From the IMG/VR virus record IMGVR_UViG_3300032220_001356, positions 26,726 to 90,725 of that record: DNA of 64,000 bases. One strand, written 5' to 3'. A program made the position numbers and the translations under genes. Source of the DNA: a virus. The notes beneath the pieces are model-generated. The model ran no database searches. It was given only the letters and a program-made list of their open reading frames with translations, and had not been told where the DNA came from. Shown piece by piece: positions 2,405 through 58,381 of this stretch (position 1 is the first letter of the stretch; each line of letters opens with the position of its first letter).

Positions 2405-2409
2405 TAGTA

Positions 2410-2453: not shown

Positions 2454-2461
2454 GTAAACGA

Positions 2462-7128: not shown

Positions 7129-7130
7129 CA

Positions 7131-11199: not shown

Positions 11200-11203
11200 T
11201 AAA

Positions 11204-15245: not shown

Positions 15246-15246
15246 A

Positions 15247-15933: not shown

Positions 15934-15936
15934 TTT

Positions 15937-16584: not shown

Positions 16585-16640
16585 AAATTTTTTTCATAAT
16601 AATATATGATATTATAAAAAAAATAACAAAGAGAAAATAA

Positions 16641-31072: not shown

Positions 31073-32869
31073 ATGACCAACAAAAGAATACCAATTATAA
31101 AATATACATCAAGAGATTTTAATTCTATTAAAAGTGACCTTGTTGAGTATGCTAAAAGATATTATCCAAATACCTATAGCGACTTTAACGAGGCATCATT
31201 TGGCTCCTTAACCCTTGATTCTGTTAGTTATATTGGTGACGTTTTATCATTTTATCTTGATTATCAGTTTAATGAAAGTTTTTTAAATACTGCGACAGAA
31301 TTTGACAATGTTTTAAAAATTGCAAATCAACTTGGTTATAAATATACCACACGAAGCACAGCATTTGGAGAAGTAACTTTTTATATATCAGTTCCAGCAA
31401 GTACAGACGGACTTTCGCCAGATCCAGCTTATATACCAATACTCAAAAAAGATTCAACAATTTCTTCAACTGGTGGTCAATATTTTACATTAATGCAAGA
31501 TATAAATTTTGCTGACACAAGCAATGAAGTGGTTGTCGCAAACGTAAATACCACCACAGGTGTTCCAACAAAATATGCCATTAAAGCTTCTGGTCTAGCG
31601 CAATCTGGATTTTTTACACAAGTACAAATAGATGTTGGAGAATTTGAAAGATTTAGAAAAGTAGACCTAAACGATCCAGATGTTTTGGAGATTGTTTCAG
31701 TAGTAGATTCTGATGGAAATCAATATTATGAAGTAGACCATTTATCTCAAGACGTAATATTCAGAGAAATTCCAAACTTTAATTTCCAAAGTGACGGAGT
31801 ACCTTCTATATTAAAACCATTTCCGGTTCCAAGAAGATTTGTTGTCAATAAATCTAGAATTACAACAATCTTACAATTTGGCTATGGTTCAGAAAATGAA
31901 CTAAACACAAGCTCCGTTGTAGACCCAGCACAAGTAGTAATTCAAATGCACGCTAAAGACTACTTTACCGAAAGCGCATTTGACCCAACAAACTTAATAA
32001 AATCCGACAAATTTGGTGTTGCCCCAGCAAGTACAACTTTGACGATTACTTATAGAAAAGCAAATGCAGCATTTTCCAACGTTGCAGCTAATACAATAAA
32101 TAAAATTGTAACACCAAACTTTGTATTTCCATTTCTTACTGAAACTTTGGGAGACATAAGACAACAAGTTATTGCAAGTGTTGAAGTTACAAATAATGTT
32201 CCATTTATTGGCGAAGTAAGATTAGATCAAACTGAAGAATTAAGAGTTAACACTCTTGATTATTATGCAGCACAAAAAAGAGCAGTTTCTGCAATTGATT
32301 ATCAAACATTAGCTTATTCTATGCCTTCAAATTATGGTAAAATTAAAAGATGTACGTTGTCGCAAGACAATGATTCTTTTAAGAGAAATATTAATTTTTA
32401 TGTTGTTTCTGAAAACAATAATAATAATTTAATTCTTGCCAATAGAGTATTAAAAGAAAACTTAAAAACTTGGCTTGTTCAACACAAAATGATCAATGAT
32501 ACAATTGACATTTTAGATGCAGTAATTGTAAACGTTGCAATTGATTTTGATGTAATTTCAAACGTAAACTACGACAAAGTAGAAACATTAAATGTTGCAT
32601 TGACAAGTCTGCAAACAGCATTTATAGACAAAATGGATATTGGCGAATCATTTTCAATTGCAAAAATCTATAATATCTTAAATAAGTTGCCACAAGTTCT
32701 AGACACAACAAGTGTAAGAGTGACACCAAAAATTGGTGGTGTTTATTCTAATTCTTATTTAAATTTAGATAAACTATTGACATATGACGGAAAGTATATT
32801 AAAGCACCAAAGAACGTCATATATGAAGTGAAATTTCCATTTCTTGATATCAAAGGAGTCGTTTCCTAA
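31073..32869 (+). CDS. Baseplate wedge protein, gp6/baseplate J-like
   Basis: YTSRDFNSIK.DL, DFNEASFG, SYIGDVLSFY, LGYK, LQFG.G, QKRAVSAIDY. Confidence 0.9.
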   Translation: MTNKRIPIIKYTSRDFNSIKSDLVEYAKRYYPNTYSDFNEASFGSLTLDSVSYIGDVLSFYLDYQFNESFLNTATEFDNVLKIANQLGYKYTTRSTAFGEVTFYISVPASTDGLSPDPAYIPILKKDSTISSTGGQYFTLMQDINFADTSNEVVVANVNTTTGVPTKYAIKASGLAQSGFFTQVQIDVGEFERFRKVDLNDPDVLEIVSVVDSDGNQYYEVDHLSQDVIFREIPNFNFQSDGVPSILKPFPVPRRFVVNKSRITTILQFGYGSENELNTSSVVDPAQVVIQMHAKDYFTESAFDPTNLIKSDKFGVAPASTTLTITYRKANAAFSNVAANTINKIVTPNFVFPFLTETLGDIRQQVIASVEVTNNVPFIGEVRLDQTEELRVNTLDYYAAQKRAVSAIDYQTLAYSMPSNYGKIKRCTLSQDNDSFKRNINFYVVSENNNNNLILANRVLKENLKTWLVQHKMINDTIDILDAVIVNVAIDFDVISNVNYDKVETLNVALTSLQTAFIDKMDIGESFSIAKIYNILNKLPQVLDTTSVRVTPKIGGVYSNSYLNLDKLLTYDGKYIKAPKNVIYEVKFPFLDIKGVVS

Positions 32870-34305
32870 TGGCAATAAAAAGATATTTTGCTAATGCCGA
32901 TACAACAATTACAAACGCATTTAAGGCCAATCTTGTATCAAGAGGTGTAAGTGGCAACATGGGTTTGTCCGACATACTTGAAGTTTTTAGTATTTATGGG
33001 CAATCAAACCCATCTTCTTCAGAACTATCCAGAGTTCTCGTACAATTTCCAACAAGTGATATTTCCTTAGATAGAGCCGCAGGATTAATACCAGCTTCCG
33101 GTTCTGTAAGTTGGTATTTAAAATTATATAATGCTAAACACTCTTCTACAACACCAAAAGATTTTACATTAGTTGTCAATCAAGTCTCCTCCTCTTGGGA
33201 CGAAGGTGAGGGATTGGATATGGAAGAATATTCAGATATTGGAACTGCAAATTGGATAAATGCCGCATCCTCTAGTTCTGGAACATCTAGTTGGGCTTCA
33301 CAGGGTGGTGATTATCACACAAGTCCAACAGCTACACAAGCATTTGATACTGGTGTTGAAAACTTGGTAGTAGATGTTTCTTCAATGGTTGAACAATGGT
33401 TGGCAGGAACAAAGCAAAATTATGGATTTGGAGTTAGATTATCTTCAAGTTTGGAACAACAAGCGAAATCTTTTTATACGAAGAAGTTTTTTGCTAGAGG
33501 ATCGGAGTTCTTCTTTTATCGTCCCGTTTTGGAAGCAAGATGGAATTCTATACGTCGTGACAATAGAGGAACCTTTTACGCCAGCAGTTCTTTGGCATCA
33601 GCAGCAGATAACTTAAATACTATATATCTTTATAATGTCGTTAGAGGCCAATTGAAAAATATCCCCTCTATTGGAACTGGACAAATTTATGTAAAGATTT
33701 ATACTGATTCTTCTGGAAGCGAAAGCATAGCAGCAACTCCAAATAATCCTGTAACTGGTGGTTGGTATTCTACTGGTATTTACACAGCTTCTTTTGCTTT
33801 GAATACAACAGCATCACAAGTGTTTGATAGATGGTTTAATTCAAGTTTAACTACTTGTTTTTATACAGGTTCTATCGATATAATAGATTTAGAAGCACAA
33901 GATTATAATCCAACAAACAATTATGTTGTTTCTTTATTAAATGGAAAACCAATTTATGACTCTACAGAACAAGCAAGATTCCGTTTCTTTATTCGTAGAA
34001 AAGATTGGAACCCTACTATTTACAATGTAGCAACAAGTGAAATTCAATCGGAGATTATCGAAAGCGCATCATACAAAATTGTAAGAGTGTCGGATAATTT
34101 AGAAGTTATACCATACGACACAGGAAGCATACAATCAACAGGTTTATCATATGATATTTCTGGTAGTTACTTTGACCTAGATATGAATATGTTAGAACCA
34201 GATTATATGTATCAAATAAAGCTTATGTTTTATGATGCAGCAACGACCCGTTGGAAAGAACAAGTTCAAACATTTAAATTTAGAGTAGAAAGTAATGAGT
34301 CTTAA
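32869..34305 (+). CDS. Baseplate/tail structural protein (DNRLRE/CBM-like N-terminal domain)
   Basis: ADTTI, SRVLVQF, LKLY, WDEG.G, NYGF, P.LEARW pattern; follows gp6. Confidence 0.6.
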   Translation: MAIKRYFANADTTITNAFKANLVSRGVSGNMGLSDILEVFSIYGQSNPSSSELSRVLVQFPTSDISLDRAAGLIPASGSVSWYLKLYNAKHSSTTPKDFTLVVNQVSSSWDEGEGLDMEEYSDIGTANWINAASSSSGTSSWASQGGDYHTSPTATQAFDTGVENLVVDVSSMVEQWLAGTKQNYGFGVRLSSSLEQQAKSFYTKKFFARGSEFFFYRPVLEARWNSIRRDNRGTFYASSSLASAADNLNTIYLYNVVRGQLKNIPSIGTGQIYVKIYTDSSGSESIAATPNNPVTGGWYSTGIYTASFALNTTASQVFDRWFNSSLTTCFYTGSIDIIDLEAQDYNPTNNYVVSLLNGKPIYDSTEQARFRFFIRRKDWNPTIYNVATSEIQSEIIESASYKIVRVSDNLEVIPYDTGSIQSTGLSYDISGSYFDLDMNMLEPDYMYQIKLMFYDAATTRWKEQVQTFKFRVESNES

Positions 34306-37300
34306 AGATTTATTTAATGTTACGAAAGTATTACCACCTATAAGCAACGAACAAATAGCAGAAGATGTTGAATCTGTACAACTTTTAGACTCATATACTT
34401 ATGAAAAGAATAGAATTGAATTTGCTGTTGATTATTCAACAGCATCTAATTTTGCTATTTATGGTTCTGCAAAACAATATTACCAAGACGCATTTGCCAG
34501 AATATACGAACAATTCCCATACGATGGTTCAAAGAAAGAAAAGATTGATTGGGAAAATTCATCTTCTTTATTAGATATTTGGATTTATGAAAACGTTTAT
34601 CCAAGAACTACTGGTTATGCTACGTTTTCTCCAAATGGTTGGAGTGCTAGAATTGGAAGTCTTGTAAGTGGTTATGGTGAACCAACAACCAAAGAATATA
34701 TTTCAATTAAAGGTGGACCAAACACAAATTCTGGTAATACTTTAATTGAAAAGTTCAAAGACGCAAGCAATCAATCTCCAAAATCTAACGTTCTTAATTT
34801 AGCCGTCCAAAGAGGAAACAATCTAGAATTTAATTTATCTGGCGGTGTTTCAACTGAATTTTGGCTTAAAAAACAATCCTTCATAAACTCCAGCACATCA
34901 AAAGAAGTTATTTTTGACTTATGGAATAATGAAACATCATCAAGTGCAACTTATGGTCGTTTAACACTTGAACTATCTGGAACTACTACTGGTTCACCAT
35001 TTTACCTTACAATTTTGTCTGGTACTACCGGATTTTCTTCTCTTAATATTGGAAGTAATATCACAACTGCTTCTGTGGCTAATAACGCTTGGAATCATTA
35101 TGCAGTAGTCGCTCAAAACTCTGGTAGCACAATAAATGTTAAGTTTTATGTTAATGGCGAATTAAATCAAACTATTGCTAGTGGAATAAACATTGGCGAA
35201 GTTACTGGTTCAATGTTGGCTAACATTGGCGCATTAAGAACAGCAGTATCTGGCACAGCAACTGATATTGGTTGGGGTAAACTATCTGGCTCTATTGATG
35301 AATTTAGATATTGGAAAACCGCAAGAACTTCTAAAGATATTGGAAGATATTGGTGGACAAATATTCATGGTGGCGCAAATACAGACGAAGCAAATACAGA
35401 CTTGGGTGTATACTACAAGTTTAACGAAGGCATTACATTAACAAGTTCTGTAGATTCCATCGTTTTAGATTATTCTGGAAGAATTACAAATGGTGCTTGG
35501 ACAGGATATACAACCAATTCAAGAAATACTGGTTCTGCTATTGACTCGTATGCAGTTGAATTAAGTCCAGAAGAGCGTGACCCAATCATCTACTCAACTC
35601 ACCCAGATGTTGTTTCTGCGCTAACTCTCTACACAACACTTGGCGAAGATCATGATTATATAAATCCAAACTCTCTTTATCGTTCTTTCCCAGATTGGAT
35701 GGTCAATACCGATACTGGAGAGTTGCTAAAACTTACACAAATTGTGTCAAGTTATTTAGATTCTTTATATTTACAAATTAAAAACTTTACCAACATTAAA
35801 GAACATTATTCTAATGTTCAAATTGATGAAAAACCATTTCCATTTTCTAAAATGTTGGGTGAATCACTCGGACTTATAACACCAGATATTTTCATTGATG
35901 CTACTTTGTTTGAGCAAGTAATGTCAAGAGATGAAGACAGAACATATGAAGATAAACTTAACGAAGTTAAAAATATAATTTATGAAAACATCTACAGCAA
36001 TCTTCAAGGAATTTACAAGTCTAAAGGTACAGAAAAGTCGTTCCGTAATTTATTAAGATGTTTTGGCATTGATGAATCAATCGTCAAAATGAACATTTAT
36101 GCAAATAATGATTCTAAAATCGTAAGAGACGACTTAACAAACATATCATTAAAGAAAAAGTCACTCAACTTTAACGATCCAGACAGATTTGGTTCAACTA
36201 TATATCAATTCTCTACATCTTCTTATGGTGCATCAAATTCATACATTTTAGGTTCTTCATCATACGATTATTTACCACTTACTTTTGAAATTGATACTAT
36301 ATTCCCAAAGAAGATTAAAAAGACACAAAATAACTTTTTCCCAACTACATTTTTAACATCTTCAATATTTGGTGTACACTCTGCTGTTTCAACCAGCACA
36401 GATTTAACTTGGGCAGCAAATGATTATTTTAATTTCCAAGTATTTGCTGTAAGACCAGAATACGAGTCTGAGCACGCAACCTTTTATTTATCTTCTTCAA
36501 ATCCATCAATTCCCGTTCTTTCATCATCTTATAATCTTTATGTTTACGATAATGAAAAATGGAATTTTGCTGTTAGATTCTTACCAACTGCACTTGGTAA
36601 TGCAGATTTGGTTGGCGGAACAACCTCTGGAAGTTATACATTAGAGTTTTATGGCGTTAGCACTATTGGCGATACCATAATACGTGAATTTAGTTCTAGT
36701 GCGGTTATTCCTTATGCATCTGGCTCAAATATGGCTAGAGCCAATAAGAGAGTTTATGTTGGTGCAGAAAGAACAAACTTTACTGGCTCTTTGGTAAAAG
36801 AAAGCGACATTAAAGTTTTAGATTTAAAAGTTTGGTCTTCTTATCTCGACAATGAAGAGATTAAGTCACACGCAAGAGATTCAGATAATTATGGTTCTAA
36901 ACTAGCAGGTAGATCATATTATTTAACCGATGGTAACTTAAACAACTTTTGGATTCCAAAACTAGACACTCTTTTACTTCATTGGGACTTTAATTTAGTT
37001 ACAGGTTCAGATGGTGGTTCTGGAGTTCTCAATGTATCTGACGGCAAATTCATTGTTAACGATCTAACATCCGGCTCACTAACATACGATAGATATGGAA
37101 GTGTTTTCAACAACATCAAAAAGTATGATTATATTGGTCGTGGTGATTATTTCTTGCAAAACGATAACACCATAACTGATACTCAATATTTGTTTTCTTC
37201 CAGAATAAATGAATTTGAAAATATCCAAAATTCAAATCTTGTCTATGTTTTGACAACTGACGAACAAAATCAAACAAGAATTAGAGACACAAGACCTATA

Positions 37301-40300
37301 AACTATTTCTTCTCTTTTGAAAAGAGTATGTATCGCACAATTAGCGATGAAATGCTAAAAATGTTTAGCACAATCGTTAATTTCAATAATTTAGTTGGTG
37401 ATCCGGTAAACAAATATAGAAAAGAGTATAAAGATTTACGTTACTTACGCACACTTTTCTTCCAAGAAGTTCAAAATGAACCAGAACTTGATAAATACTT
37501 AGATTTCTATAAGTGGATCGATTCATCACTTGGTAAATTGTTGTTGCAACTTGTTCCAGCATCAGCAGAAACATCACATGGTCTTTTAAATGTTGTTGAA
37601 AATCATGCATTTACAAGAAACAAACATCAATATAAGTTCCCAACTTTAGAATTTACAGACCCAGTTTTAGAAGCTGGTATGAATACAATCAATATACATT
37701 TGTATAATTGGAAGTTTGGACATAGACCAATAAGCAATTTAGAAGATGAAAATTGTTTATATTGGAACGCAAAAGCTGAACGTAATGTTGCTCCAATTTC
37801 ATCCTCAGTTTCTTCTGTCAATACAACAAGACAACAAATACTTTCTGTAACATTACAAGCTTTAAATCGTTCTTTTACAACTGCTCAAAGATATAAAGTT
37901 GATTTTTCTGACGAATATAAAGGTGGACCAAATTTCCACAAGAATAAGAAAATTGATTTTATGAAAATTGCCACGGCTCCACACGGACCAATGGATGCTG
38001 ATGACGTAATAAATGTACCAGCAAATTATCTTTTCATCGGCGTTGAAAATACAAGCTCAGTTATAAAAGATTGTAACGATATTTACAACCCATCTAAAAA
38101 AGTAAAATATAGTTTTGATGTTGTTCATGGTCGCGATTATCTTTCTTCCTCCTTGGGATATGGAGAAGTATTAAAATCTGATTTAGCAATCCCAGCAAAC
38201 TTTGTAAGTGGTAATGTCACAACCGGCTATAATGCTGAAGTTGTTGATAGATTTATGAGTGGGGTAATTATCACAAACTTGCACAATGATTCGTATGGTG
38301 ATCAAAAAGAAATCCCCGCACAAGGTCCATTTACCAATCAATGGATGGGTGGTTTACAATCTAGACACATTGAACTTAATCAAGGAACAGATGATTACAC
38401 AACACGCCCAGAAGGATGGAAACTATTAATTGGACAACTTGGAACTTCTTCTTACCAAGCAACTCTTGGATTTGTAGGTGCTGATTATCCATATCCAGAA
38501 GGAAATCCAGACGAACCATCATATCCAGTTAGAGTACACAAGAGAGCAACATATTACAGAGATTTTACCGCTAAATCTCCATACAATATTAAAAACATAG
38601 GCTCTACTCGTCCTGCTGTTCTTGCTCGTCCTTCTTCGCCACCAACTGGTACTCTTTCAATTGGTAATTTCTATCACAGATATGAATATTTCCATACATT
38701 TGGAAAAACCAATAATAATAAACTTTTAGTTGATAATGCAACTTCTAGCTTGTCACAAACAGAGCTATTCGGTATTTTACGTACAGATATTGTTGATGGT
38801 AGAGTAAACTTTACCTTACCAACACAACTTCGTTCTGAAACAATAATAGGAAACAAGTTTTCCTCTCCCGGCGATTATAGAACAATGTCGAGAGGTTATT
38901 TGAATCTTTATGCAGAAGAATTATCACCATATAACGTTCAACCATTTAAGAATAGAAAGATCATTGGTGATGGTAGAAGAGTCAATCCTGTTTTAACAAA
39001 TGATTCAATACTTTACATACCAGAAATAATTTCTGGCTCAAACAAAGAATTAAATCCATTGACAGCAATTCCATCTTTTGCTGGTTATCAAAGTGGCTCT
39101 ACTACAATTGCTTCTTTACACAAAGTTCCAAGAAATGGCGGTTGGCAGACACAATATTCTGGTACTTCTGTTGTCACAACACAAAAATATGATAACGGAT
39201 TCTATCGTTATGAAATTCCAAAAACAGATGCTCAATATTCTTGGATTAAGTATTCTGTTTCCTCTACTAATAAAGATTTATTAGAATACCAAGGACACCT
39301 TCCAGAATCACTACCAACTGGTTCTATTTCTTATGTTCCAATTTTGACTCTTTTAACACAAAGTTTGGTTGGTGTTAGTGGAGCCAGTAACCTATATGGT
39401 CTTGAAAACCCAACAATACCAGTTGATTTTGCACATATGAACACGATTATTAATGATGTGGTTATAACAGGAAGCAATACACTTGGTACAACAACTGAGA
39501 CTAATTATATAACTGATTTTGCAACCATAAATATTGCTAGAATACCAAGAATTTTAAATGGCGTTAATTTAAACAGAAATGGTCCTTATGGCTATTCTTC
39601 TTTTAAACAAGTAAGAGCAAAAAATAAGATAATTACTGCACTTGATAAAAATGCAAAGTTTTCTTTTGTTGATAGCAGAGGAAAGCTTAACAACTACGAA
39701 GAACCATCTGTTTATTTCAATGAAACATTGAAATATCAATTATTGAATACTTACGATTCATCAAGCTATGAAATTGAAACTACATTTAGAAATAACTTAC
39801 AAAAATATGAAAGTCCAAGAATAAAGAATAAAATCGTTGTTCCATCATCTGGATTGTCTAGCTATTCATTGTTGCTAACAAATTTGTTCATCAATCCAAA
39901 TTTGCGATTGTTGGACTTAACATACGAAGTGCAAATATATCCACAATTTGAATTCTCTACTATCAACAGACTTCGTAGAAGAACAACATATACATTTGAC
40001 ACTTGGCGTGATTCAAGAGCAAACAGACAAGACACATCCGTCATTGATCCAGCAACATCTAGAACAATTCCAACACAAAGTGCGTGGCCTTTAGATAGTA
40101 GAATTGATTTGTCAACACCATATTTAAGCAATTCATCTGGTGGTGATGGTGTGTTGCAAAATGCCTATTCTTCTATTCACAATGGAGTTACAAGTAGCAT
40201 TACAGCAAGTGTTCTATACTCTTTCAAGCATATGCTTGGCTCTAATAATAGCTGGGCTTCACCTAGTGTTAAGACCGGATATGATTCAAGTACACAATAT

Positions 40301-43078
40301 TTGAACACAACAAATGGATTGTTCGACGGAACAGCAAAATGGCAAGTCCCAGAAACCAGCGAATATAATAAGCCATACTACGATTCTTACAATGATTGGT
40401 TTGGTATGATCAAGTACAAAGGCAAAAATTATCAAATTATGCCAGAGTACAGAATTTCCAATACAGATAGAAACATGGTATTGGCAGTAAATAATCTTTT
40501 ACTGGAAGATGAACAATTAAATACAATGGTATTGCCCGGTTCACCAGCAGATCCACCAGATAGACCACAAGAATTTAAAGTAACATACTTTGAAAGCAAC
40601 ACAATTGAGTTAGCAGAACAAGTTATGACAGATATGTCATCAATCACAAAGACTGCAAGCTTGACATTAATTTGCGATGCAATAGTTAAATTAAATCCAG
40701 AAGATTCTTTCTATCCAGTTAACAGAACATTAGATTTAGCAGAGTATTTTTACAGAACAATAGTAACAAGTAGTCTATTCTGGACAAGTAGCGCAATTCC
40801 AGAAAATGAATATACAAATACAAATGTTGCAACTAGAAACTTTATGACTCCTATGTTTGCACCCGGTATTATGTATAACACCATAAAATCTGGTATTGCT
40901 GTTGATTTTCCAGTTTTAACTTCAAGTATATTAGTAACTTCAAGTTATGTTGATGCTACTGCATCTGCATCTGGCGCTATTGATTATAAAATCAATAATC
41001 CTACATTTGATGCTAGATTACCATTTGAAACGCTATATGATCCAGATAGTTACTTAAAACGTAAATCAATTATTGATCTTTACCCACATCCATCTGCATC
41101 TTTAAACATAACTGGTTCTTGGACAGGCACATCATATACAGAATTGTATAAGTATGCAATACACAATTTCTTGTCTGAAATAGTAGACTTTTATTTACCA
41201 GAAGGTAAATTAACTTCACTAATCTCAAAGCCAGAAATAAATTTCCAAATCGTTCAACCCAACAAACAATATCGTGCGTTAATTAAGCTTTATAAGAGTA
41301 AAGCAAGTCCAGTATTGAACGTGGAAACTCCCGGTCCTTTGGTCACAAATTATACAAGACCACAATTCTTGCCAAAAGAAAGAGAAAGCATTTTAATGTA
41401 CAATAGAGCTAGTGCTTTCGGCCCTCCAGTTAATGGTGGTTTAGTTTCCGGTTCTGTGTCTGATATAGATTCATCAAATGGATATTATTCTCCATTTACT
41501 CCTCCATATTATGATGGTGAAGCTTGGGTATTGTTGACCTACAATCCAACTGGTTCTGTTCCATATAGACCAAGTTTGGATGAAATTATTAACAATATAA
41601 CAGCCTCTTATTTAAGATACGAATTTAATTCTGGAACCTTATCTGACGATTCTGCACCTCTTGCATATGGCAAACTTAATTTGAACTCAATGCAAGCAAG
41701 TGCATCGTTGAACTTATTTAATGTTATCAATATTGACCAAACAACTTTAAATAATATTTCAAATAACTCAACTACCGTAGAAGGTTCAAAAGTTTGGGCA
41801 ATACAAACTAAATTTGAAACTCCAATTTTAGATTATGCGTCCACAATCACGATTGACTCTGGTAGCCAAGCCAACGAAACTGCTGGTGTTTGGCACCAAC
41901 TTGGCTCAATAATAGAAGGTGTTGGAAGAACGGCAGATGGTATTTTCTTACAAGTTACTGATATACCAAATGATTATATACTATATGGCGCTGAAGCTGA
42001 CGAAAAAAGAGCAGAACCAACAGGAAGAAGTCTTGCAGCAACAGGTTCTTTGGCTGACGTTGTAGGATTCTCCAAAGAACCAGTAAGACTTGGACAACTT
42101 GCTAAAAGCAAGAATATCAAAGAAGCAGTTGTTGCGATACCATATTTACTGGAAGAAACAGGTGGTACACCATTAAGAGTGTTCTTCTCTTACAATACAA
42201 CTAACAAAAACTATGTTTCTTTCTTAAAATCACCAGCTTCTGCAACTACCACTTTTGCCGATGATGCATTAGTACCAGAGTCCATTAAACGTCAAATTTC
42301 ATTGATGCAAGAATATGTTATACCACCCGGTATGGATTTCATGAAAAACGATGGAGTTGTTCCATTTAGTATGTATATTTTTGAATTTGAATATAATTTG
42401 ACTCAACAAGATTTGGCAAATATTTGGCAAGGAATAATGCCAAGTATTTCATATAATTTTGCAGAACAAAGCAAATCTATTACTCACGAATTAACTTTTG
42501 ATGATTCCGAATTGCTAGATGCAAACGAAATAACTGATAAAATTAGATGGCTTGTATTTAAAGTTAAGAAGAAAGCAAAAAATAATTATAACAATAAATT
42601 ATTCCAATCATTAAAAACTAATTCTTTCGTAAATACAATCAACAAAATTCAATCAATCGGAAGACCAGATACAGATAGATTTGCTGGTACAGAAGAATTA
42701 GATTTTTCTTTCAATTGGCCTTATGATAATTTCTCTTTAGTAGAAATGGCTAAAATAAATGCAAAATTAAAATTCTTCTCAACTCCTGTTGGAATAAGAG
42801 CAGACATTGGTGATATTCCAGTATTAGATGCCAACAATCTTTCAAATGCTTCTAATTCAAATATACCAGATTTAAGCTCTACAGCATTTGCAAATGCAGC
42901 AGAACTACGTGAAAGAATAAGAAATATTGAAATTGCTGATCAAATTGGCATCCCAAGCGTAAGTGTAACTACCGACGCCATTACCACTCCAATATTTGTT
43001 GAGGATTTAAGTAGTGCTGATACTGGAAGTGCAAGTGAGAGAATAATTGAACCACCAGTTAAAACAACGCTTCGATAA
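34295..43078 (+). CDS. Giant virion protein with LamG/concanavalin-like domains and a baseplate-wedge segment
   Basis: STEFWLK, WNHYAV, FYVNG, GSIDEFRYW, YYKFNEG (LamG); IYKSKGTEKSFRNLLRCFG (wedge/gp7-like motif); 2927 aa. Confidence 0.75.
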   Translation: MSLKDLFNVTKVLPPISNEQIAEDVESVQLLDSYTYEKNRIEFAVDYSTASNFAIYGSAKQYYQDAFARIYEQFPYDGSKKEKIDWENSSSLLDIWIYENVYPRTTGYATFSPNGWSARIGSLVSGYGEPTTKEYISIKGGPNTNSGNTLIEKFKDASNQSPKSNVLNLAVQRGNNLEFNLSGGVSTEFWLKKQSFINSSTSKEVIFDLWNNETSSSATYGRLTLELSGTTTGSPFYLTILSGTTGFSSLNIGSNITTASVANNAWNHYAVVAQNSGSTINVKFYVNGELNQTIASGINIGEVTGSMLANIGALRTAVSGTATDIGWGKLSGSIDEFRYWKTARTSKDIGRYWWTNIHGGANTDEANTDLGVYYKFNEGITLTSSVDSIVLDYSGRITNGAWTGYTTNSRNTGSAIDSYAVELSPEERDPIIYSTHPDVVSALTLYTTLGEDHDYINPNSLYRSFPDWMVNTDTGELLKLTQIVSSYLDSLYLQIKNFTNIKEHYSNVQIDEKPFPFSKMLGESLGLITPDIFIDATLFEQVMSRDEDRTYEDKLNEVKNIIYENIYSNLQGIYKSKGTEKSFRNLLRCFGIDESIVKMNIYANNDSKIVRDDLTNISLKKKSLNFNDPDRFGSTIYQFSTSSYGASNSYILGSSSYDYLPLTFEIDTIFPKKIKKTQNNFFPTTFLTSSIFGVHSAVSTSTDLTWAANDYFNFQVFAVRPEYESEHATFYLSSSNPSIPVLSSSYNLYVYDNEKWNFAVRFLPTALGNADLVGGTTSGSYTLEFYGVSTIGDTIIREFSSSAVIPYASGSNMARANKRVYVGAERTNFTGSLVKESDIKVLDLKVWSSYLDNEEIKSHARDSDNYGSKLAGRSYYLTDGNLNNFWIPKLDTLLLHWDFNLVTGSDGGSGVLNVSDGKFIVNDLTSGSLTYDRYGSVFNNIKKYDYIGRGDYFLQNDNTITDTQYLFSSRINEFENIQNSNLVYVLTTDEQNQTRIRDTRPINYFFSFEKSMYRTISDEMLKMFSTIVNFNNLVGDPVNKYRKEYKDLRYLRTLFFQEVQNEPELDKYLDFYKWIDSSLGKLLLQLVPASAETSHGLLNVVENHAFTRNKHQYKFPTLEFTDPVLEAGMNTINIHLYNWKFGHRPISNLEDENCLYWNAKAERNVAPISSSVSSVNTTRQQILSVTLQALNRSFTTAQRYKVDFSDEYKGGPNFHKNKKIDFMKIATAPHGPMDADDVINVPANYLFIGVENTSSVIKDCNDIYNPSKKVKYSFDVVHGRDYLSSSLGYGEVLKSDLAIPANFVSGNVTTGYNAEVVDRFMSGVIITNLHNDSYGDQKEIPAQGPFTNQWMGGLQSRHIELNQGTDDYTTRPEGWKLLIGQLGTSSYQATLGFVGADYPYPEGNPDEPSYPVRVHKRATYYRDFTAKSPYNIKNIGSTRPAVLARPSSPPTGTLSIGNFYHRYEYFHTFGKTNNNKLLVDNATSSLSQTELFGILRTDIVDGRVNFTLPTQLRSETIIGNKFSSPGDYRTMSRGYLNLYAEELSPYNVQPFKNRKIIGDGRRVNPVLTNDSILYIPEIISGSNKELNPLTAIPSFAGYQSGSTTIASLHKVPRNGGWQTQYSGTSVVTTQKYDNGFYRYEIPKTDAQYSWIKYSVSSTNKDLLEYQGHLPESLPTGSISYVPILTLLTQSLVGVSGASNLYGLENPTIPVDFAHMNTIINDVVITGSNTLGTTTETNYITDFATINIARIPRILNGVNLNRNGPYGYSSFKQVRAKNKIITALDKNAKFSFVDSRGKLNNYEEPSVYFNETLKYQLLNTYDSSSYEIETTFRNNLQKYESPRIKNKIVVPSSGLSSYSLLLTNLFINPNLRLLDLTYEVQIYPQFEFSTINRLRRRTTYTFDTWRDSRANRQDTSVIDPATSRTIPTQSAWPLDSRIDLSTPYLSNSSGGDGVLQNAYSSIHNGVTSSITASVLYSFKHMLGSNNSWASPSVKTGYDSSTQYLNTTNGLFDGTAKWQVPETSEYNKPYYDSYNDWFGMIKYKGKNYQIMPEYRISNTDRNMVLAVNNLLLEDEQLNTMVLPGSPADPPDRPQEFKVTYFESNTIELAEQVMTDMSSITKTASLTLICDAIVKLNPEDSFYPVNRTLDLAEYFYRTIVTSSLFWTSSAIPENEYTNTNVATRNFMTPMFAPGIMYNTIKSGIAVDFPVLTSSILVTSSYVDATASASGAIDYKINNPTFDARLPFETLYDPDSYLKRKSIIDLYPHPSASLNITGSWTGTSYTELYKYAIHNFLSEIVDFYLPEGKLTSLISKPEINFQIVQPNKQYRALIKLYKSKASPVLNVETPGPLVTNYTRPQFLPKERESILMYNRASAFGPPVNGGLVSGSVSDIDSSNGYYSPFTPPYYDGEAWVLLTYNPTGSVPYRPSLDEIINNITASYLRYEFNSGTLSDDSAPLAYGKLNLNSMQASASLNLFNVINIDQTTLNNISNNSTTVEGSKVWAIQTKFETPILDYASTITIDSGSQANETAGVWHQLGSIIEGVGRTADGIFLQVTDIPNDYILYGAEADEKRAEPTGRSLAATGSLADVVGFSKEPVRLGQLAKSKNIKEAVVAIPYLLEETGGTPLRVFFSYNTTNKNYVSFLKSPASATTTFADDALVPESIKRQISLMQEYVIPPGMDFMKNDGVVPFSMYIFEFEYNLTQQDLANIWQGIMPSISYNFAEQSKSITHELTFDDSELLDANEITDKIRWLVFKVKKKAKNNYNNKLFQSLKTNSFVNTINKIQSIGRPDTDRFAGTEELDFSFNWPYDNFSLVEMAKINAKLKFFSTPVGIRADIGDIPVLDANNLSNASNSNIPDLSSTAFANAAELRERIRNIEIADQIGIPSVSVTTDAITTPIFVEDLSSADTGSASERIIEPPVKTTLR

Positions 43079-43104
43079 AAAACAATTTTCCGGATATTTA
43101 TAAT

Positions 43105-44082
43105 ATGGCATTTTTTAATTCCAAAGAAGAAGTATATGATATTGAACTAACGCAATATGGTAAACTTTTGTTGTCAAGAGGTTTGTTAAAACCTGCATAT
43201 TATTCTTTGCACGATGATGATGTACTATACGATTCGGACTATGCAGGAGTTGAAGAAAATACAAACTACGCAGAAGTGCGTATTCAAGATGAAACACCGG
43301 TTCATAAAACTTTTTATGATTTTAAAGAATTAAGACCAATTATAAATTTTGATTTAAATCAGCAACTTTTTAGAATTCAAAAGTCTAATCACGCTATAAG
43401 AAAACCAATTGTTGCATATAATAGTTTATCAAATTCAACAATATCAAACCATTATATTCCTGCTTGGGAAATAAATAACTTATCAACTAATTTTACATCT
43501 AGCTCTCGCACATTTACTAATCTAAATGTCATTAGCGCATCAATACCACAATTTAATGTTGAAGTTGATACATTATTCATCAAGGCAGATGCAGACGTTT
43601 TAGAAACAAATCGTTCGCTAAGAGTCTTATCAGAACTTGAAGAAACCACCGATAATTTAGATGAATTTACATACATCTGTGTAAATAAACCAATTTTGTT
43701 CCAAATTATTGAACATAATTGTGATTTCAAACATGACGCTTTTGAATACGAAGTCTATAAAGTATCAGAAGAAGATGGAAAAGAAATCTATACACAACTA
43801 AAACTCTCAAAAGAAATAACTAATTACGACGAGCAGACCGATTTATACGTGCAAAATTCAAATATGTTTTTAGAAGAATTAAATCAAACATATGCAGATT
43901 ACTTCTTCAATATTTCTGTTGATAGAGAAATTGGCGTTTTAGATGCTTGTAGATACATTTTGCGTGATCAAGATAATATCGATTTAATATTTGATGATAT
44001 TTCTATATGTGATGATATAAGAGAAAGTATAAGAACTAGTGGCTTATACGACGGATTGCCACCAGATGGAGAATCTTGTTAA
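43105..44082 (+). CDS. Tail/baseplate structural protein (N-terminus paralogous to 49541-50491)
   Basis: MAFFNSKEEVYDIELTQYGKLLLSRG..DDDVLY resembles MAFLDNSGDIILDAVLTDTGRYRLAKG..DDEINY. Confidence 0.6.
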   Translation: MAFFNSKEEVYDIELTQYGKLLLSRGLLKPAYYSLHDDDVLYDSDYAGVEENTNYAEVRIQDETPVHKTFYDFKELRPIINFDLNQQLFRIQKSNHAIRKPIVAYNSLSNSTISNHYIPAWEINNLSTNFTSSSRTFTNLNVISASIPQFNVEVDTLFIKADADVLETNRSLRVLSELEETTDNLDEFTYICVNKPILFQIIEHNCDFKHDAFEYEVYKVSEEDGKEIYTQLKLSKEITNYDEQTDLYVQNSNMFLEELNQTYADYFFNISVDREIGVLDACRYILRDQDNIDLIFDDISICDDIRESIRTSGLYDGLPPDGESC

Positions 44083-49300: not shown

Positions 49301-49477
49301 ACAACTTCACCAACTGCCCCAAGTGCAATCATACCATATGTTCCTGTTGTACCACCGCCTCCAAAACCACCCATTGGAATAGGGGCACCAGTATCACCAA
49401 CAATTCCTTCTATTTCTACAAGCCCAGCAAGACCATTTTCTTCTGTACCTGTCGGAGAAGACAGAATAATAAGATAA
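46358..49477 (+). CDS. Virion structural protein with FN3-like segments and Pro/Ser/Thr-rich inserts
   Basis: DTQVVYGKTYDY and FIDSLEFNTKYYYTFR.ID..NNIS (FN3-like); low-complexity PTS tracts. Confidence 0.6.
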   Translation: MKKTYYPPNLVSNLSNRELKLKFHEIGYRLNREFYFPTTTDDSAIISIIKEFYTASGIEDPILSVYPNYFVKTPNGIENLQRETHPFYGLFNVVIGPRYYDPLYGYRNSFEITINKEILKGFIAVFIVDDISLIETDYLDDYYSTLFVIALEDLITNLTTTITPSPLSPSLSIPKKLFYSRYSVNKHTEQSVTTYTENPFYYKFESQYNFYNRKYENVFSSGSTLPDSIIPNLYACNSYIYFDEPERIRKVVSLDGRVPITEESLLNEKYYTDYASAVEAITDPAEFSTITKTKNYVLDPANSNISSVPLSSENFPYCVKMKLSNYYSDPVETFMTEKKLNTYVVNNSHYLFNNEISKPTSISITGSNFYVIEDEVFLVPNEAGSYVGGDGRTYDVITSVIQSTQSVDNTDYTNLFNYDSASAGFVVYPYSEYKFYSTENRNYLSYLSRPLSVFTYLNFNSFQKTLSSLVQDYSSVLNLTELSAYNLNFQVEKSVSGSVVNNFSFSRNEDIEFSVDDTQVVYGKTYDYRFYGINYVNSFSYVLSDVYIGYSGTIAPTSSGTLTPPEISTRERIEVLPYGSDGLTFPASSIELAGEILSTSEGLPTPDVSVTPSIIPSTGLPSPITSRTILSATEIADTARRALLSTTERRRPASITSRNAPPFSLETRPFPNKPDINFPTIPTPLPEKSPTPPAIIGTITFEDDTKIYKNFLFDKSFAVFDNPPPLVGIQILPLLNSPNNLLFLLNSSNFSYLEEPRIIYPSDFDYFRKLRIIQDLGTKKILFEGADDLVSVDVFRTTTPPKRYSDFADYFYRSIEFQLDDYGRTSATDFIDSLEFNTKYYYTFRGIDVHNNISNATEVYEVEIVNNDGAIYSIVKNYDLRETGLEYQYTKPFKKYISINPSIFYTSIQQNEEGRIIIGDNNSGMWGEKFKIRVRSKESGKCFDINFTFNKKTYNAIDGTSELNDFEPEVFEPSLDIPGPTTTSPTAPSAIIPYVPVVPPPPKPPIGIGAPVSPTIPSISTSPARPFSSVPVGEDRIIR

Positions 49478-49516
49478 TTTAAAAATAAAAAAAAACAAAC
49501 TAATTATTTTTACACA

Positions 49517-49532
49517 CTATTTAAATAGAGGT
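49517..49532 (+). promoter_or_regulatory. Putative late-promoter motif (palindrome CTATTTAAATAG) followed by a GAGGT RBS
   Basis: In a 63-bp intergenic region before the tail gene at 49541. Confidence 0.55.
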
Positions 49533-49540
49533 TATACAAT

Positions 49541-50491
49541 ATGGCATTTTTAGATAACAGCGGCGATATCATCCTTGATGCAGTTTTAACTGATACAGGT
49601 AGATATAGATTAGCTAAAGGCGATGGTTCTTTTAAAATAACACAATTTGTTTTGGCAGATGATGAAATAAATTATAATTTATATGATAAAAACCATCCTT
49701 CTGGTTCTGCATATTTTGATCTAGAAATATTACAAACACCAGTTTTTGAAGCTTTTACAAACAACACTTCTGTAGTTAAACATCCATTATTAAGCATAAC
49801 AGCTACAAATCTTTTATATCTTCCTGTTATGAACTTAAATACCAACAATGCCCGTACTGGAACTACCACATTGCAAGGAACTCCATTAGTTTCAGCATAT
49901 GATACTTATTTTGTCACTTGTGACGCTACCACCAACACAGAACTTGTGCCTTCAAGTGTTGATGGAGCATTTGATGGTTATAGTCTTACCATAACTGGTC
50001 ACGGATTCCGTATTGATCAAGGGTTGGATACTACAGAAATCGCACCAGATACTTTAATTTCTCGCGATCTTTTAGAAACACAATATGTTGTACAAATTGA
50101 CAATAGATTGGCAAGAATAGTATCAAGTGACTCTTCACCTGTTACAGCCGTTCCATCATTTATAGATGATGACAATATCGCAAGCTATGCCTTTACTGAT
50201 GCATTAGTACGATTTGTCCAAAAAATTAGCCTTGATACCTCCTCTCCTCCAACATCATACAACAATAATCAAGTTATTCTTGGACCAAAAGGAACTTGTT
50301 TGGGCTTTTCTCTACAAGTAACACCAGATTTAGTAACAAGTACGTTTTTATTTACTACACTAGGTTCCACTTTTAGTTATGGTGGAAAAACTTATTACTA
50401 CATTGATTCAAACATTGTAGTTCGCGGAGTTACAACTGGTTCGATAATAACAATCCCTGTTAGATTTATTAAATATAAATCAACACCATAA
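49541..50491 (+). CDS. Tail/baseplate structural protein
   Basis: MAFLDNSGDIILDAVLT..G, DDEINY, ILQTPVFEAF; sits in the tail/baseplate cluster. Confidence 0.65.
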   Translation: MAFLDNSGDIILDAVLTDTGRYRLAKGDGSFKITQFVLADDEINYNLYDKNHPSGSAYFDLEILQTPVFEAFTNNTSVVKHPLLSITATNLLYLPVMNLNTNNARTGTTTLQGTPLVSAYDTYFVTCDATTNTELVPSSVDGAFDGYSLTITGHGFRIDQGLDTTEIAPDTLISRDLLETQYVVQIDNRLARIVSSDSSPVTAVPSFIDDDNIASYAFTDALVRFVQKISLDTSSPPTSYNNNQVILGPKGTCLGFSLQVTPDLVTSTFLFTTLGSTFSYGGKTYYYIDSNIVVRGVTTGSIITIPVRFIKYKSTP

Positions 50492-50508
50492 TTTTAAGGT
50501 AATATAAA

Positions 50509-51543
50509 ATGGCATCAACATACAAAGTTTTAAATCCAACAAGCGACATTGTTTCAACTACCACATTGTTGCATGAAGCAATACCTATAACTGGAACAAT
50601 CGTTTCTGGAACATATAGCGATAATAATATTCAAAATTATACCCACCAAATGTTCCAATCTGTATATGATTATCCATATTTAAGCTCTTCTGCCAATCAT
50701 ATATTCGATATTGCTGTTGGGTTTTCATCAGATTCGCCATTATCATCTTCTTCTGGCAACCAAAACGCAAAGAAGATAAATATATACAATCAAATGGCAC
50801 AAATTTTGGTTGGACACGATATAACTGGTTCAATTATGAAGTTTGATAAAAATGGAGACTTTACTACAACTGGCGATAAAATAAAAGAAGCAATCTTCTT
50901 GCCATTTGCAAGATTGCTTGTAAAAGACCAAATTAAAAAAGGTTCATTTGAAATCAAATTACTAACTGGCTCCGCAAACACAAGTCCAGCCAACACTTTG
51001 ACAATTGGTGATTATGGCGCAGCCACAGACTATAGAACAAATTCACCAGCAGGAGAATATGGAATTCTTTATACCTCTTCTGCTGCCGCAGCAGATACCG
51101 GTGTTGGTCTTATCTACTATCAAGCTGGTGTTGTTGTTTTAACCGCATCTGTTTTCAATGGTAACTTTGGTCCTAGAGCAGATACTTCCACATATACATC
51201 TTCAATTGGTGCTTATTTAACAAGTGGAAGCATCACAGGTTCTTGCAATGGATTTAGAAATAGATTATACAATGTTCAATTTAATAACACAACAGAATTA
51301 AATTCTACGGTTTATTTCTGCCGTGCAAATTCAAATGAATTTAATTATTCTTCTAATCCAACATATGTATCCGAAAGCAAGATCATAGTTAAAAATGTTT
51401 CTACCGATGCTCCTGTTTCTTATATTACTACGGTAGGTTTGTATTCAGCAGATAACGAATTATTAGCTGTAGCAAAAGTATCTGAACCATTAAGAAAAAC
51501 AATTGATTCTGAGCTTACATTAAGAGTTAGATTAGATTACTAA
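50509..51543 (+). CDS. Tail/baseplate structural protein (paralog of 51553-52725)
   Basis: IKKGSF, G.IYY..G..VL, EFNYSSNPTY, YITTVGLY..DNELLAVAK.S.P.RK. Confidence 0.65.
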   Translation: MASTYKVLNPTSDIVSTTTLLHEAIPITGTIVSGTYSDNNIQNYTHQMFQSVYDYPYLSSSANHIFDIAVGFSSDSPLSSSSGNQNAKKINIYNQMAQILVGHDITGSIMKFDKNGDFTTTGDKIKEAIFLPFARLLVKDQIKKGSFEIKLLTGSANTSPANTLTIGDYGAATDYRTNSPAGEYGILYTSSAAAADTGVGLIYYQAGVVVLTASVFNGNFGPRADTSTYTSSIGAYLTSGSITGSCNGFRNRLYNVQFNNTTELNSTVYFCRANSNEFNYSSNPTYVSESKIIVKNVSTDAPVSYITTVGLYSADNELLAVAKVSEPLRKTIDSELTLRVRLDY

Positions 51544-51552
51544 TTTGATGTT

Positions 51553-52725
51553 ATGTTTATTCCAATAAAGCAAAACGAAATTTTCATTAATCAATACGAA
51601 TTTAATCCAAATGTTAATTTCTATGTATTTGATGGAAAACAATATTTAAACAATAAAGGTCAAATATCTGGCGCTTTTGCTTCAAATGTTGGTAATGTTC
51701 CAATTGGTCATATCAATCTTTACGAACTGAACGTTGATAGATTATCTGGATCAAACAATTTTATCTATCCATTTATAACAAAAGATGGAAGTTTGTTGAC
51801 CTTCAAAACAATATCAACATCTTCTTTTAATACAGATTTTATGTATGGCGACATTATGACAGGTTCTTATCCATTAAGTGCCTCGATTAGTAGAGAGTTT
51901 TATCAACTTGGAGAAACCAGAAGAAGAGTCGATACATTAAGAAATACAATAAATTATTATTCTTATTTAAGTAAGCATTATGCTTATTCATCGTCTCTTG
52001 GAAATAAAGCTTCACAATCTCTTAATTTAATCAGCATACCATCTATATTTTACGGAAGTTCAATTAAAAAAGGTTCTATTGATTTATCTTTTTATATTTC
52101 TGGCACTTTAATTGGACAGCTAAAAGACGTAAATAAAAACGGAGAACTAATACAAGTAGCACCATCTGGTTCTAATGGTTCTGGCTCTGTAGCGGGAATA
52201 GCTTTATATACAGAGGGTTTTTTGATTCTAACAGGTTCTTGGGGTTTAGAAACTGGAGTTGCTAGAAATTATTTAGATGATATTTCTAATCAAGTTACAT
52301 CTTCATGGTTGTATTTTGGTGCTGGCTTGATGGGAACAGAAAATTATACTTCTGGAAGCTTGCCTTCTTCAAGTTTTGGTATTACCTTTGAAGGTACAAG
52401 TAAAGTACCAGTTATGACCATGTTAGTTCATGCTCAACGTGGAAAATTTAACAACTCTCTAAATCCAACGTATGTTGAGAAAACACAAAGAGTTGTTCCA
52501 ACAACAAGTTCAACAACATTTTATGAGAATAGATTTGTTGAAGCTGCAAATGTTGTATCCAGCTCATATAATGATCCACAAGAATATATGCAAAAAACAA
52601 CATTTATTACAAAAATTAATTTATATGATGATGAACAAAATCTAATTGGTATTGCAAAAATTTCTAAACCTGTCAAAAAAACACAAGATAGAGATTTAAC
52701 ATTTAAATTAAAATTGGATTTGTAG
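51553..52725 (+). CDS. Tail/baseplate structural protein (paralog of 50509-51543)
   Basis: IKKGSI, G.ALY..G..IL, KFNNSLNPTY, FITKINLYDD..NLIGIAK.S.P.KK. Confidence 0.65.
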   Translation: MFIPIKQNEIFINQYEFNPNVNFYVFDGKQYLNNKGQISGAFASNVGNVPIGHINLYELNVDRLSGSNNFIYPFITKDGSLLTFKTISTSSFNTDFMYGDIMTGSYPLSASISREFYQLGETRRRVDTLRNTINYYSYLSKHYAYSSSLGNKASQSLNLISIPSIFYGSSIKKGSIDLSFYISGTLIGQLKDVNKNGELIQVAPSGSNGSGSVAGIALYTEGFLILTGSWGLETGVARNYLDDISNQVTSSWLYFGAGLMGTENYTSGSLPSSSFGITFEGTSKVPVMTMLVHAQRGKFNNSLNPTYVEKTQRVVPTTSSTTFYENRFVEAANVVSSSYNDPQEYMQKTTFITKINLYDDEQNLIGIAKISKPVKKTQDRDLTFKLKLDL

Positions 52726-52730
52726 AATAA

Positions 52731-53264: not shown

Positions 53265-53267
53265 TTT

Positions 53268-53939: not shown

Positions 53940-53957
53940 AAGCCGATATGGTATAGT
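53929..53957 (+). promoter_or_regulatory. Sigma70-type promoter predicted to initiate at the primase ATG
   Basis: TTGTGA(53929-34)-17 bp-TATAGT(53952-57) with TGn extension; ATG at 53964; no SD. Confidence 0.6.
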
Positions 53958-53963
53958 ATCAAC

Positions 53964-54893: not shown

Positions 54894-54901
54894 GGACCAA
54901 A

Positions 54902-55126: not shown

Positions 55127-55135
55127 CAAATATCG

Positions 55136-55177: not shown

Positions 55178-55181
55178 ACAA

Positions 55182-58328: not shown

Positions 58329-58356
58329 CTAATATTATTCGTTTTAGATGACCCTA

Positions 58357-58364: not shown

Positions 58365-58381
58365 TCTGTGAGGAAAAACAA

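Follow-up and report, generated by a model that had tools for sequence, protein, structure and literature searches.

What is the role of a three-residue motif that recurs throughout a few structural proteins of a phage? This question is raised by a stretch of 64,000 nucleotides from the IMG/VR virus record IMGVR_UViG_3300032220_001356 (positions 26,726 to 90,725 of the record; hereafter the window), in which four proteins of 478, 2927, 344 and 390 amino acids (aa) are dense in [ST][GAS][ST], i.e. Ser or Thr, then Gly, Ala or Ser, then again Ser or Thr. A viral contig of 90.7 kb (~50% complete) ends with this window, which has ~31% GC, carries every gene on the plus strand and belongs to a marine, distant T4-like myovirus of the 'far-T4' lineage. 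An earlier note, made from the sequence alone, had proposed that the motif is an O-glycosylation sequon of virion proteins that is served by glycosyltransferases (GTs) of the phage. Our results support selection on the motif at the protein level. Glycosylation is a serious hypothesis for what is being selected, and a purely structural role is nearly as likely.

Results

Excess and shape of the motif in four proteins of the window

The motif was counted exactly, and the expectation was taken from 500 composition-preserving shuffles per protein. All four proteins exceeded this expectation (Table 1), and pooled they contained 112 sites compared with 35.8 expected (3.1-fold, z 13). The core [ST]GS occurred 35 times in the four proteins where 5.5 occurrences were expected (6.4-fold), and the tripeptides TGS (18 vs 2.5), SGS (17 vs 3.4), TSS (18 vs 4.2) and SSS (21 vs 5.5) were all overrepresented. 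Shuffling in blocks of 10 to 50 residues left the excess in place (z 3.7–9.3). Since the excess persists in within-block shuffles, it is positional and does not merely reflect a local richness in Ser, Thr and Gly. The enrichment described in the earlier note thus survived the composition and the local-composition shuffles.

The motif has a defined shape. It is directional, with 45 sites of the type T-x-S and 16 of the type S-x-T, and its third position is Ser in 89 sites and Thr in 23. The centre favours only Gly (4.5-fold), Ser (2.7-fold) and Ala (2.1-fold), and Asp, Glu, Lys, Arg, Phe and Pro are depleted there. A hydrophobic residue follows 56% of the sites and precedes 46% of them, compared with a background of 34%. 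When the preceding hydrophobic residue was included in the pattern, the counts were 5 vs 1.6 expected for the 478-aa protein, 27 vs 7.0 for the 2927-aa protein (hereafter the giant protein), 10 vs 1.3 for the 344-aa protein and 7 vs 1.3 for the 390-aa protein. The hydrophobic predecessor described earlier is thus enriched. The refined motif is hydrophobic-[ST]-[G>S>A]-S-hydrophobic.

At the DNA level, the 112 sites are encoded by 86 distinct 9-mers, AGY serine codons are used at background frequency, and a search for tandem DNA repeats in the four motif-rich genes found none, in agreement with the dispersal and the varied codons described before. In the 390-aa protein, five sites (183, 205, 227, 249 and 272) lie ~22 residues apart. 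We conclude that protein-level selection on the motif in these four proteins is supported.

The giant protein contains a Laminin_G_3/ConA-like domain at residues 178–349 (Pfam PF13385, E 4e-10), and its densest stretch (residues 201–400, 13 sites) is where this domain lies. Beyond it, Pfam and PHROGs searches with the four proteins returned nothing, and a profile search against the PDB gave no match. The 344-aa and 390-aa proteins proved to be paralogs (E 9e-13), so the proposed occurrence of the motif in unrelated folds does not hold for two of the four proteins.

Table 1 Location of the motif-rich proteins, the glycosyltransferase module and the baseplate landmarks in the window
Feature	Coordinates	Strand	Motif sites vs expected	z	Remarks
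478-aa protein	32869..34305	+	18 vs 5.8	5.2	directly after the gp6-like wedge gene
2927-aa giant baseplate-module protein	34295..43078	+	66 vs 22.3	9.9	
344-aa protein	50509..51543	+	13 vs 4.5	4.4	
390-aa protein	51553..52725	+	15 vs 3.6	6.1	
GT4 'a'	3069..4316	+			Pfam PF00534, E 2e-13
GT4 'b' fused to GT2	4271..6280	+			Pfam PF00534 and PF00535; separate adjacent genes in relatives
Variable sugar cassette	6280..19368	+			Pfam and NCBIfam matches
gp5-like hub/lysozyme protein	22513	+			
gp25-like protein	30567	+			
gp6-like wedge protein	31073	+			

Enzymes, other virion proteins and T4 as controls

The contrast with enzymes that had been estimated by hand was confirmed by the exact counts: compared with the 18, 66, 13 and 15 sites of the four proteins, the terminase has 2 (1.9 expected) and the Mre11-Rad50-like protein 1 (1.8 expected). 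All other open reading frames (ORFs) of the window stayed below z 2.7, except for a trivial 2 vs 0.2 (z 4.7) in a 206-aa ORF at 2462. Non-structural ORFs were at expectation both in the window (35 ORFs, 0.94-fold) and in a complete relative (88 ORFs, 1.03-fold).

The extension of the claim to virion proteins in general turned out to be too broad, as the motif is no more frequent than expected in the Ser-rich ORFs 44076 and 46358 or in the proteins that resemble gp5, gp25 and gp6; inner baseplate proteins, the portal and several likely fibre proteins showed no enrichment. In T4, the wide motif is at z near 0 in gp6, gp7, gp8, gp10, gp11, gp12 and wac and reaches ~1.15-fold over the virion proteins, and [ST]GS is found once in the late set where 5.3 occurrences are expected (0.19-fold). 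These controls show that the excess is not a bias of the whole genome, and that myovirus tail proteins do not share it in general.

Conservation and turnover of the sites in relatives

Three of the protein families have thousands of metagenomic homologs each, of near-fixed length; the 344-aa family alone has 3,088 representatives at 50% identity. In this family, 7 of 13 sites are retained in >93% of homologs. Retention was similarly tested with 120 homologs of the 390-aa protein, where 10 of 15 sites are kept in >75%, and with 120 homologs of the 478-aa protein (73–93% identity), where retention reaches 90% or more for 12 of 18 sites. Substitutions at the sites remain in class (T/S, G/S/A), the flanking residues are conserved as well, and the central residues interchange within the same alignment columns (for example A72/S48, S102/G12/A5 and G60/S46/A12). 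The hydroxyl residues of the motif are conserved to 81–92%, compared with 70–76% for other Ser and Thr. Homologs at 40–60% identity are still enriched (median z 3.5), and when the shared sites were masked in 68 diverse family members, the remainder was still 1.8-fold enriched (301 vs 170).

The giant protein behaves differently. We compared it with its ortholog in a complete genome of the clade (G004, 190 kb, 41% GC). At 39% identity, only 15 of 62 aligned sites persist, and the ortholog is itself enriched (62 vs 26). With so few shared sites and an equally enriched ortholog, the giant protein keeps its density through positional turnover, whereas the sites of the small proteins are positionally fixed.

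In the same complete genome, z exceeds 3 in the four orthologs and in only two further ORFs, one of 1025 aa that adjoins the sheath gene and an epimerase-like one of 255 aa (3 vs 0.6). Its portal, capsid, gp13-like and sheath proteins are enriched 1.97-fold when pooled (z 4.2; capsid protein alone 1.9-fold, z 1.7). As the same four T4 proteins summed reach ~1.6-fold, driven by the sheath, this signal is not clearly lineage-specific. Of the 14 sites in the sheath of this relative, 13 lie in lineage-specific parts and none in the C-terminal core, the part alignable to T4 gp18, where ~4 would be expected with a uniform distribution.

The cultured phages of the lineage gave a corresponding picture. 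Microcystis phage Mel-JY01 is enriched in the sheath (z 5.2), in a gp13-like neck protein (z 3.5), in the giant protein and 4 of 5 paralogs (z 2.9–5.2), and also in the post-gp6 protein and terminal fibre-like ORFs, while no excess is seen in its gp6, gp25, portal, protease, terminase or GTs. Flavobacterium phage immuto shows the same enrichment pattern in syntenic genes, and the 478-aa orthologs of immuto, Mel-JY01 and the complete clade genome are all enriched. The excess therefore sits mostly on outward-facing proteins. Neither the 478-aa protein nor the giant protein had a homolog in the phage database by tblastn.

At the edges of the lineage, Rhodothermus phage RM378 was considered as a clean counter-example with GTs and no excess, and this was dropped: only its 344-aa family member p128 lacks the excess, and genome-wide it has 47 [ST]GS compared with 17 expected, concentrated in a few ORFs. 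At positions 64825–67547 of RM378, adjacent ORFs of 483 and 423 aa carry an excess (z 3.9 and 3.4; [ST]GS 3 vs 0.5 and 5 vs 0.4).

The paralogs themselves are variable in number. Mel-JY01 encodes five consecutive members of the 344/390-aa family (357, 352, 954, 718 and 591 aa) at 172489–181435, and the window and immuto two each. Metagenomic members range from 330 to 590 aa and carry inserts, among them domains similar to ConA/Laminin-G. The family, which has no solved fold, is thus a modular and expanding one of the baseplate periphery. Judged from sequence, the ConA/Laminin-G domains in the giant protein and in the family inserts suggest a peripheral, carbohydrate-facing position.

Structural models of the motif-bearing proteins

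The 344-aa protein was modelled by AlphaFold2 with a diverse alignment (pLDDT 86, pTM 0.80). In this model, which is not a beta-helix, all 13 sites are outside strand interiors; five begin at most one residue from the C-terminus of a strand, and the remainder are in loops or at helix ends. In this one model, the sites thus agree, at the level of secondary structure, with the exposed turns that the earlier note expected. A classical tight beta-turn that depends on Gly would combine a strand-end or loop location, which is seen in the model, with an obligatory central Gly, which the motif does not have.

The model had no solved relative (Foldseek E >0.01; VIA-align Z ≤4.7), and a search of a viral structure library returned only uncharacterised members of the same family. 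The AlphaFold2 model of the 390-aa protein (57 close homologs) was poor (pLDDT 50) and was excluded from site mapping; a fold search with it gave only generic beta-sandwich matches (Z ≤4.3). Comparison of the motif-dense Laminin-G-like stretch of the giant protein with solved homologs gave only spurious matches. We also considered that the 344/390-aa pair might be equivalent to the internal tube initiators gp48 and gp54 of T4. This was unsupported (hhalign probability 0.2% for both).

The glycosyltransferase module and its possible acceptors

The GTs proposed to act on the motif belong to a sugar island (3069–19368) upstream of the baseplate genes. After the two GT4s, the second of which is fused to a GT2 (Table 1), comes a cassette with a GT10 fucosyltransferase, a GT25, a third GT4, a SIS isomerase, a transaldolase, a GHMP kinase, a nucleotidyltransferase, epimerases/dehydratases, three methyltransferases and a sugar dehydrogenase. 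The GT genes (GT4, GT4-GT2, GT10, GT25 and the third GT4) together span 3069–10634. Pfam scans of all ORFs between 3069 and 19368 reported GT4, GT2, GT10 and GT25, and no BAHT or GT9 family. Both GT4s retain the EX7E motif (EGFGLATLE and EGFGLPIFE). Their best curated matches were BshA, MshA and glycolipid synthases, all far below the cut-offs, and the best solved relatives of the phage GT4 were BshA and a chlorovirus GT, not GtfA. No 19-residue window as hydrophobic as a membrane span was detected in the GT and sugar-cassette ORFs (maximum 1.69, at the N-terminus of the 12839 ORF, which is uncertain); the only higher score (2.27) belongs to the 19804 ORF, a small one without annotation that follows directly after the cassette.

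The GT4 pair is orthologous to adjacent genes of immuto and Mel-JY01 (32–36% identity, E 1e-47 to 1e-73; GT4 'b' with the second GT4 of these phages, 33–36%), and an adjacent orthologous pair is probably also present in RM378. The window, immuto and Mel-JY01 share the synteny PD-(D/E)XK nuclease, GT4, GT4, GT2, methyltransferase. The first GT4 is found in 10 of 10 long clade contigs drawn from IMG/VR loci; its identity of 48–61% means that the 390-aa structural protein is no better conserved. It also occurs in RM378 and in the 484-kb phage LR756508. Among 50,697 phage records, clear orthologs of GT4 'a' were present only in the seven that hold the 344-aa family. We searched for relatives devoid of the GT and found none, since the 10 long clade contigs, immuto, Mel-JY01, RM378 and LR756508 all have the first GT4.

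In contrast to this module, the content of the cassette varies from phage to phage. The conserved block and cassette span 1640–19368 in the window, 47964–59944 in immuto and 81375–89690 in Mel-JY01. The window has a heptose/fucose-type cassette with GT10 and GT25, and that of immuto encodes aminotransferases, an acetyltransferase-like 'pilin glycosylation protein' and a mannosyltransferase. This arrangement suggests a core that stays fixed and a cassette that diversifies the glycan. Between 10612 and 13582 of the window lie the SIS isomerase, the transaldolase, the GHMP kinase and a capsule-phosphatase-like N-terminus with an rfaE-domain-II-like nucleotidyltransferase; all matches are below curated cut-offs, and together they predict a nucleotide pathway for a heptose-type or higher-carbon sugar with its own transaldolase.

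What could be the acceptor of this module? The hosts of the cultured members are Bacteroidota, Cyanobacteria and Rhodothermus (Flavobacterium and Microcystis among them). Conservation of the module across such diverse hosts would make a host-specific lipid-linked acceptor unlikely, and a phage-intrinsic or universal acceptor appears more plausible. DNA is a poor candidate. None of the five complete clade genomes encodes a hydroxymethylase of the thymidylate synthase family (PF00303), nor does Mel-JY01; it was found in immuto only. In the DNA of immuto_2-6A, a relative of the window phage, LC-UV-MS/MS (liquid chromatography with UV and tandem mass spectrometric detection) revealed only dA, dC, dT and fdPreQ1 and no glycosylated nucleoside (PMC10516641); all dG is replaced by 7-(formylamino)methyl-7-deazaguanine via DpdA3 and the preQ1 pathway (PMC10516641). 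Given the lack of the hydroxymethylase and the DNA chemistry of immuto, it is very unlikely that the conserved GT module glycosylates DNA.

Discussion

What the motif may be for

We consider it a serious hypothesis, with a probability of about 0.4, that the motif is an acceptor or recognition site for O-glycosylation of the virion by the GT module of the lineage. The sequence hydrophobic-[ST]-[G/S/A]-S-hydrophobic would then be a short surface-loop tag, selected on outward-facing proteins of the tail and baseplate and O-glycosylated in the host cytoplasm by the conserved soluble GT4-GT4-GT2 module, which would have to act on proteins. The Ser and Thr residues of the motif would be the acceptors, the variable sugar cassette would elaborate the attached glycan, and the glycan may shield the particle or mediate adhesion. 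Several observations argue for this hypothesis. The excess is limited to this lineage and to certain proteins, mainly outward-facing ones, and to positions outside strands; it recurs in several proteins without detectable sequence similarity to one another; its density is kept through turnover, and its third position is biased towards Ser. Furthermore, the lineage has a core, soluble, host-independent GT module with no other obvious acceptor, and, by analogy, glycosylation of Ser in a context of small residues has precedents in the TibC sites and in SASSAS. Somewhat more tentative is the wider proposal that a globally abundant far-T4 lineage of marine and freshwater phages performs sequon-directed cytoplasmic O-glycosylation, in which the core module would read the motif in loops of baseplate, sheath and fibre proteins that face outwards, and the fast-evolving cassette (heptose/fucose here, amino-dideoxyhexoses in immuto) would diversify the glycan and yield phage 'serotypes'.

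Nearly as likely is a motif that is purely structural. Its hydrophobic residues would anchor neighbouring beta-strands, and the three small polar residues would form a tight strand-end cap or turn with hydroxyls bonding to the backbone; it would be common since the outer domains are all-beta with many short connections, and the GT module would serve host envelope lipids, small molecules or another protein. This explanation accounts for much of what weighs against glycosylation. Many sites are among the most conserved residues of their families, hydrophobic flanks included; L-T-G-S-W and L-S-S-S-A, for example, are invariant in 120 homologs. Structural positions typically look like this, and most O-glycosylation sites known from bacteria do not. 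The swap of Gly, Ser and Ala in the same columns suggests a size constraint, and charged or bulky residues are depleted at the centre. Five of the 13 sites in the 344-aa model start at a strand end, the five sites of the 390-aa protein are regularly spaced, and the motif hydroxyls are only modestly better conserved than other Ser and Thr. T4 gp18 (z 2.7), gp48 (z 2.3) and gp9 (z 1.7) lean mildly upwards with no known glycosylation or other modification. Other points also count against glycosylation. Our literature search found no glycan described on virion proteins of this lineage, and GT4 enzymes often act on lipids or small molecules. Motif and GT module co-occur inside one lineage, which makes their association a single evolutionary event rather than independent evidence, and the link is loose at the edges: p128 of RM378 has 1 site compared with 2.3 expected although the GTs are present, and LR756508 has a moderate motif excess and no detectable second GT4. 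Nor do enzymes avoid the tag (0.61- and 0.83-fold, both non-significant, and 1.59-fold in the complete clade genome). What the structural explanation leaves unaccounted for is that T4 gp6, gp7, gp8, gp10, gp11, gp12 and wac show no excess and are depleted in [ST]GS; that the excess occurs in several proteins of the lineage that have no detectable sequence similarity, and within the sheath in the lineage-specific outer domains rather than in the conserved core; that the giant protein keeps its density while positions turn over; that Gly is optional, so that no classical Gly-dependent turn is formed; and that a core GT module, conserved across hosts of three phyla, is left without an acceptor. 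The earlier proposal that the sites are acceptors for the phage GTs has thus gained from the finding that the GTs are a lineage-wide core module with a DNA role excluded for immuto, and conserved sites fit a structural role equally well.

We regard it as rather improbable that the motif is a functional surface feature of another kind, such as a polysaccharide-binding patch of hydroxyls, a tag for an assembly factor or a site for a different modification. A directional motif that is confined to outward-facing proteins and holds its density through turnover agrees with such a function, and the lectin-type ConA/Laminin-G domains of the giant protein and some family members fit a periphery that contacts carbohydrates; but no candidate reader or modifying enzyme was identified besides the GTs, and a binding patch explains neither the hydrophobic flanks nor the small centre. 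Finally, the four proteins are rich in Ser (10.5–13.6%) and Thr, and the excess might be a compositional or mutational artefact of low-GC genes rich in Ser, Thr and Gly. This is highly improbable and effectively refuted by the controls: the excess outlasts global shuffles and shuffles in 10-residue blocks, the nearby ORFs 20794, 44076 and 46358 have as much Ser and no excess, enzymes encoded by this genome are at 0.94-fold, codons are varied, and the excess recurs in the relative with 41% GC.

Other features of the window

Downstream of the baseplate genes, the window encodes a RuvC-like resolvase, a primase, the Mre11-Rad50-like protein and the terminase. At the other end, a 227-aa ORF (646–1329) that adjoins a PhoH-like gene has a sub-threshold match to the anthrax lethal factor N/C-terminal domain family (Pfam PF07737, E 6.8e-5, 23 bits vs a cut-off of 27.4) and may have a distant metalloprotease-like fold. 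The stretch of lowest GC content (44001–48000, 26.9% compared with ~31–33% around it) covers ORFs 44076–46358 and 46358–49477. These ORFs are large and Ser-rich, gave neither family matches nor a motif excess, and may represent fibre genes that have been exchanged. At 44466–44526 there is a tandem repeat with a unit of 28 bp (2.1 copies).

Significance and relation to known systems

To our knowledge, mycobacteriophages are the only phages for which experiments have demonstrated phage-encoded glycosylation of the virion, and there it concerns the C-terminal ends of two proteins. Should the motif indeed be a glycosylation site, no short protein sequon would have been defined before it for glycosylation by a phage, and, being defined by sequence, it would predict glycosylated phage proteins from sequence alone. 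It would also assign a function to the core GT module of a very abundant aquatic phage lineage, with three structural families that each count thousands of metagenomic members, and would mean that auxiliary genes of marine phages read as 'cell-wall modification' genes serve the coat of the virion, with consequences for adsorption, grazing, the stickiness of particles and recognition by immune or defence systems. If its role is only structural, the motif is a clean signature by which outer baseplate proteins of the lineage can be recognised, and no relative of their folds has been solved. The question can be tested directly, as motif excess and GT module are both present in the cultured phages immuto and Mel-JY01.

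Several known systems resemble the proposed one in part. GtfA and GtfB are the O-GlcNAc transferase pair of serine-rich-repeat adhesins of Gram-positive bacteria, GtfB being the non-catalytic partner. As with this pair, adjacent GT4 genes are conserved together in the phages, Ser stands in a Ser-small-Ser context, and the modification would take place in the cytoplasm before export or assembly. Unlike in GtfA/GtfB, both phage GT4s keep EX7E, and the motifs are single and dispersed rather than arranged in long tandem Ser-rich repeats. A related signature, SASSAS, marks O-glycosylation of S-layer proteins in Lactobacillaceae (PMC10221546).

Phage DNA glycosylation likewise involves GTs of the phage itself that belong to the core genes of a lytic lineage and lie near nuclease genes; examples are the glucosylation of hydroxymethylcytosine in T-even phages and the diverse DNA glycans of Pyle et al. 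2024 (cited in PMC12619734). In contrast to these systems, the complete clade genomes have no hydroxymethylase of the thymidylate synthase family, and immuto is without glycosylated nucleosides.

The earlier note had drawn an analogy to AAH and TibC, autotransporter heptosyltransferases of the BAHT family. TibC heptosylates Ser in N-S-G-G and T-S-A-A, and it is Ser, not Thr, that is modified (PMC4358343). AAH and TibC carry out cytoplasmic hyper-O-glycosylation of AIDA-I and TibA at loop serines of a folded, beta-rich surface protein (PMC4358343). The candidate sites of the phage resemble those of TibA in their small neighbours and loop locations, their bias towards Ser at the third position parallels the modification of Ser, and the window encodes a predicted heptose-type sugar pathway. 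The analogy may thus stand for the sequence context and fails for enzymes and substrates: the phage enzymes are of the GT4/GT2 type, the scans of the island reported no BAHT or GT9, the substrates are not autotransporter beta-helices, and 19-residue repeats are missing.

The nearest known system is the O-glycosylation of mycobacteriophage virions by phage-encoded GTs, where, in the account of Freeman et al. 2023 given in PMC12619734, glycans are attached at the C-termini of capsid and tail-tube subunits. Compared with these C-terminal sites, the candidate sites of the far-T4 lineage are scattered over loops of proteins of the baseplate, sheath and fibre type that are themselves folded, and the GT set, to which glycosylation is ascribed here as a hypothesis, is a GT4-GT4-GT2 core of the lineage beside a variable sugar cassette. 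What the two would have in common, as far as that account goes, is that soluble GTs encoded by the phage decorate its own virion proteins in the host cytoplasm and provide the particle with a glycan coat.

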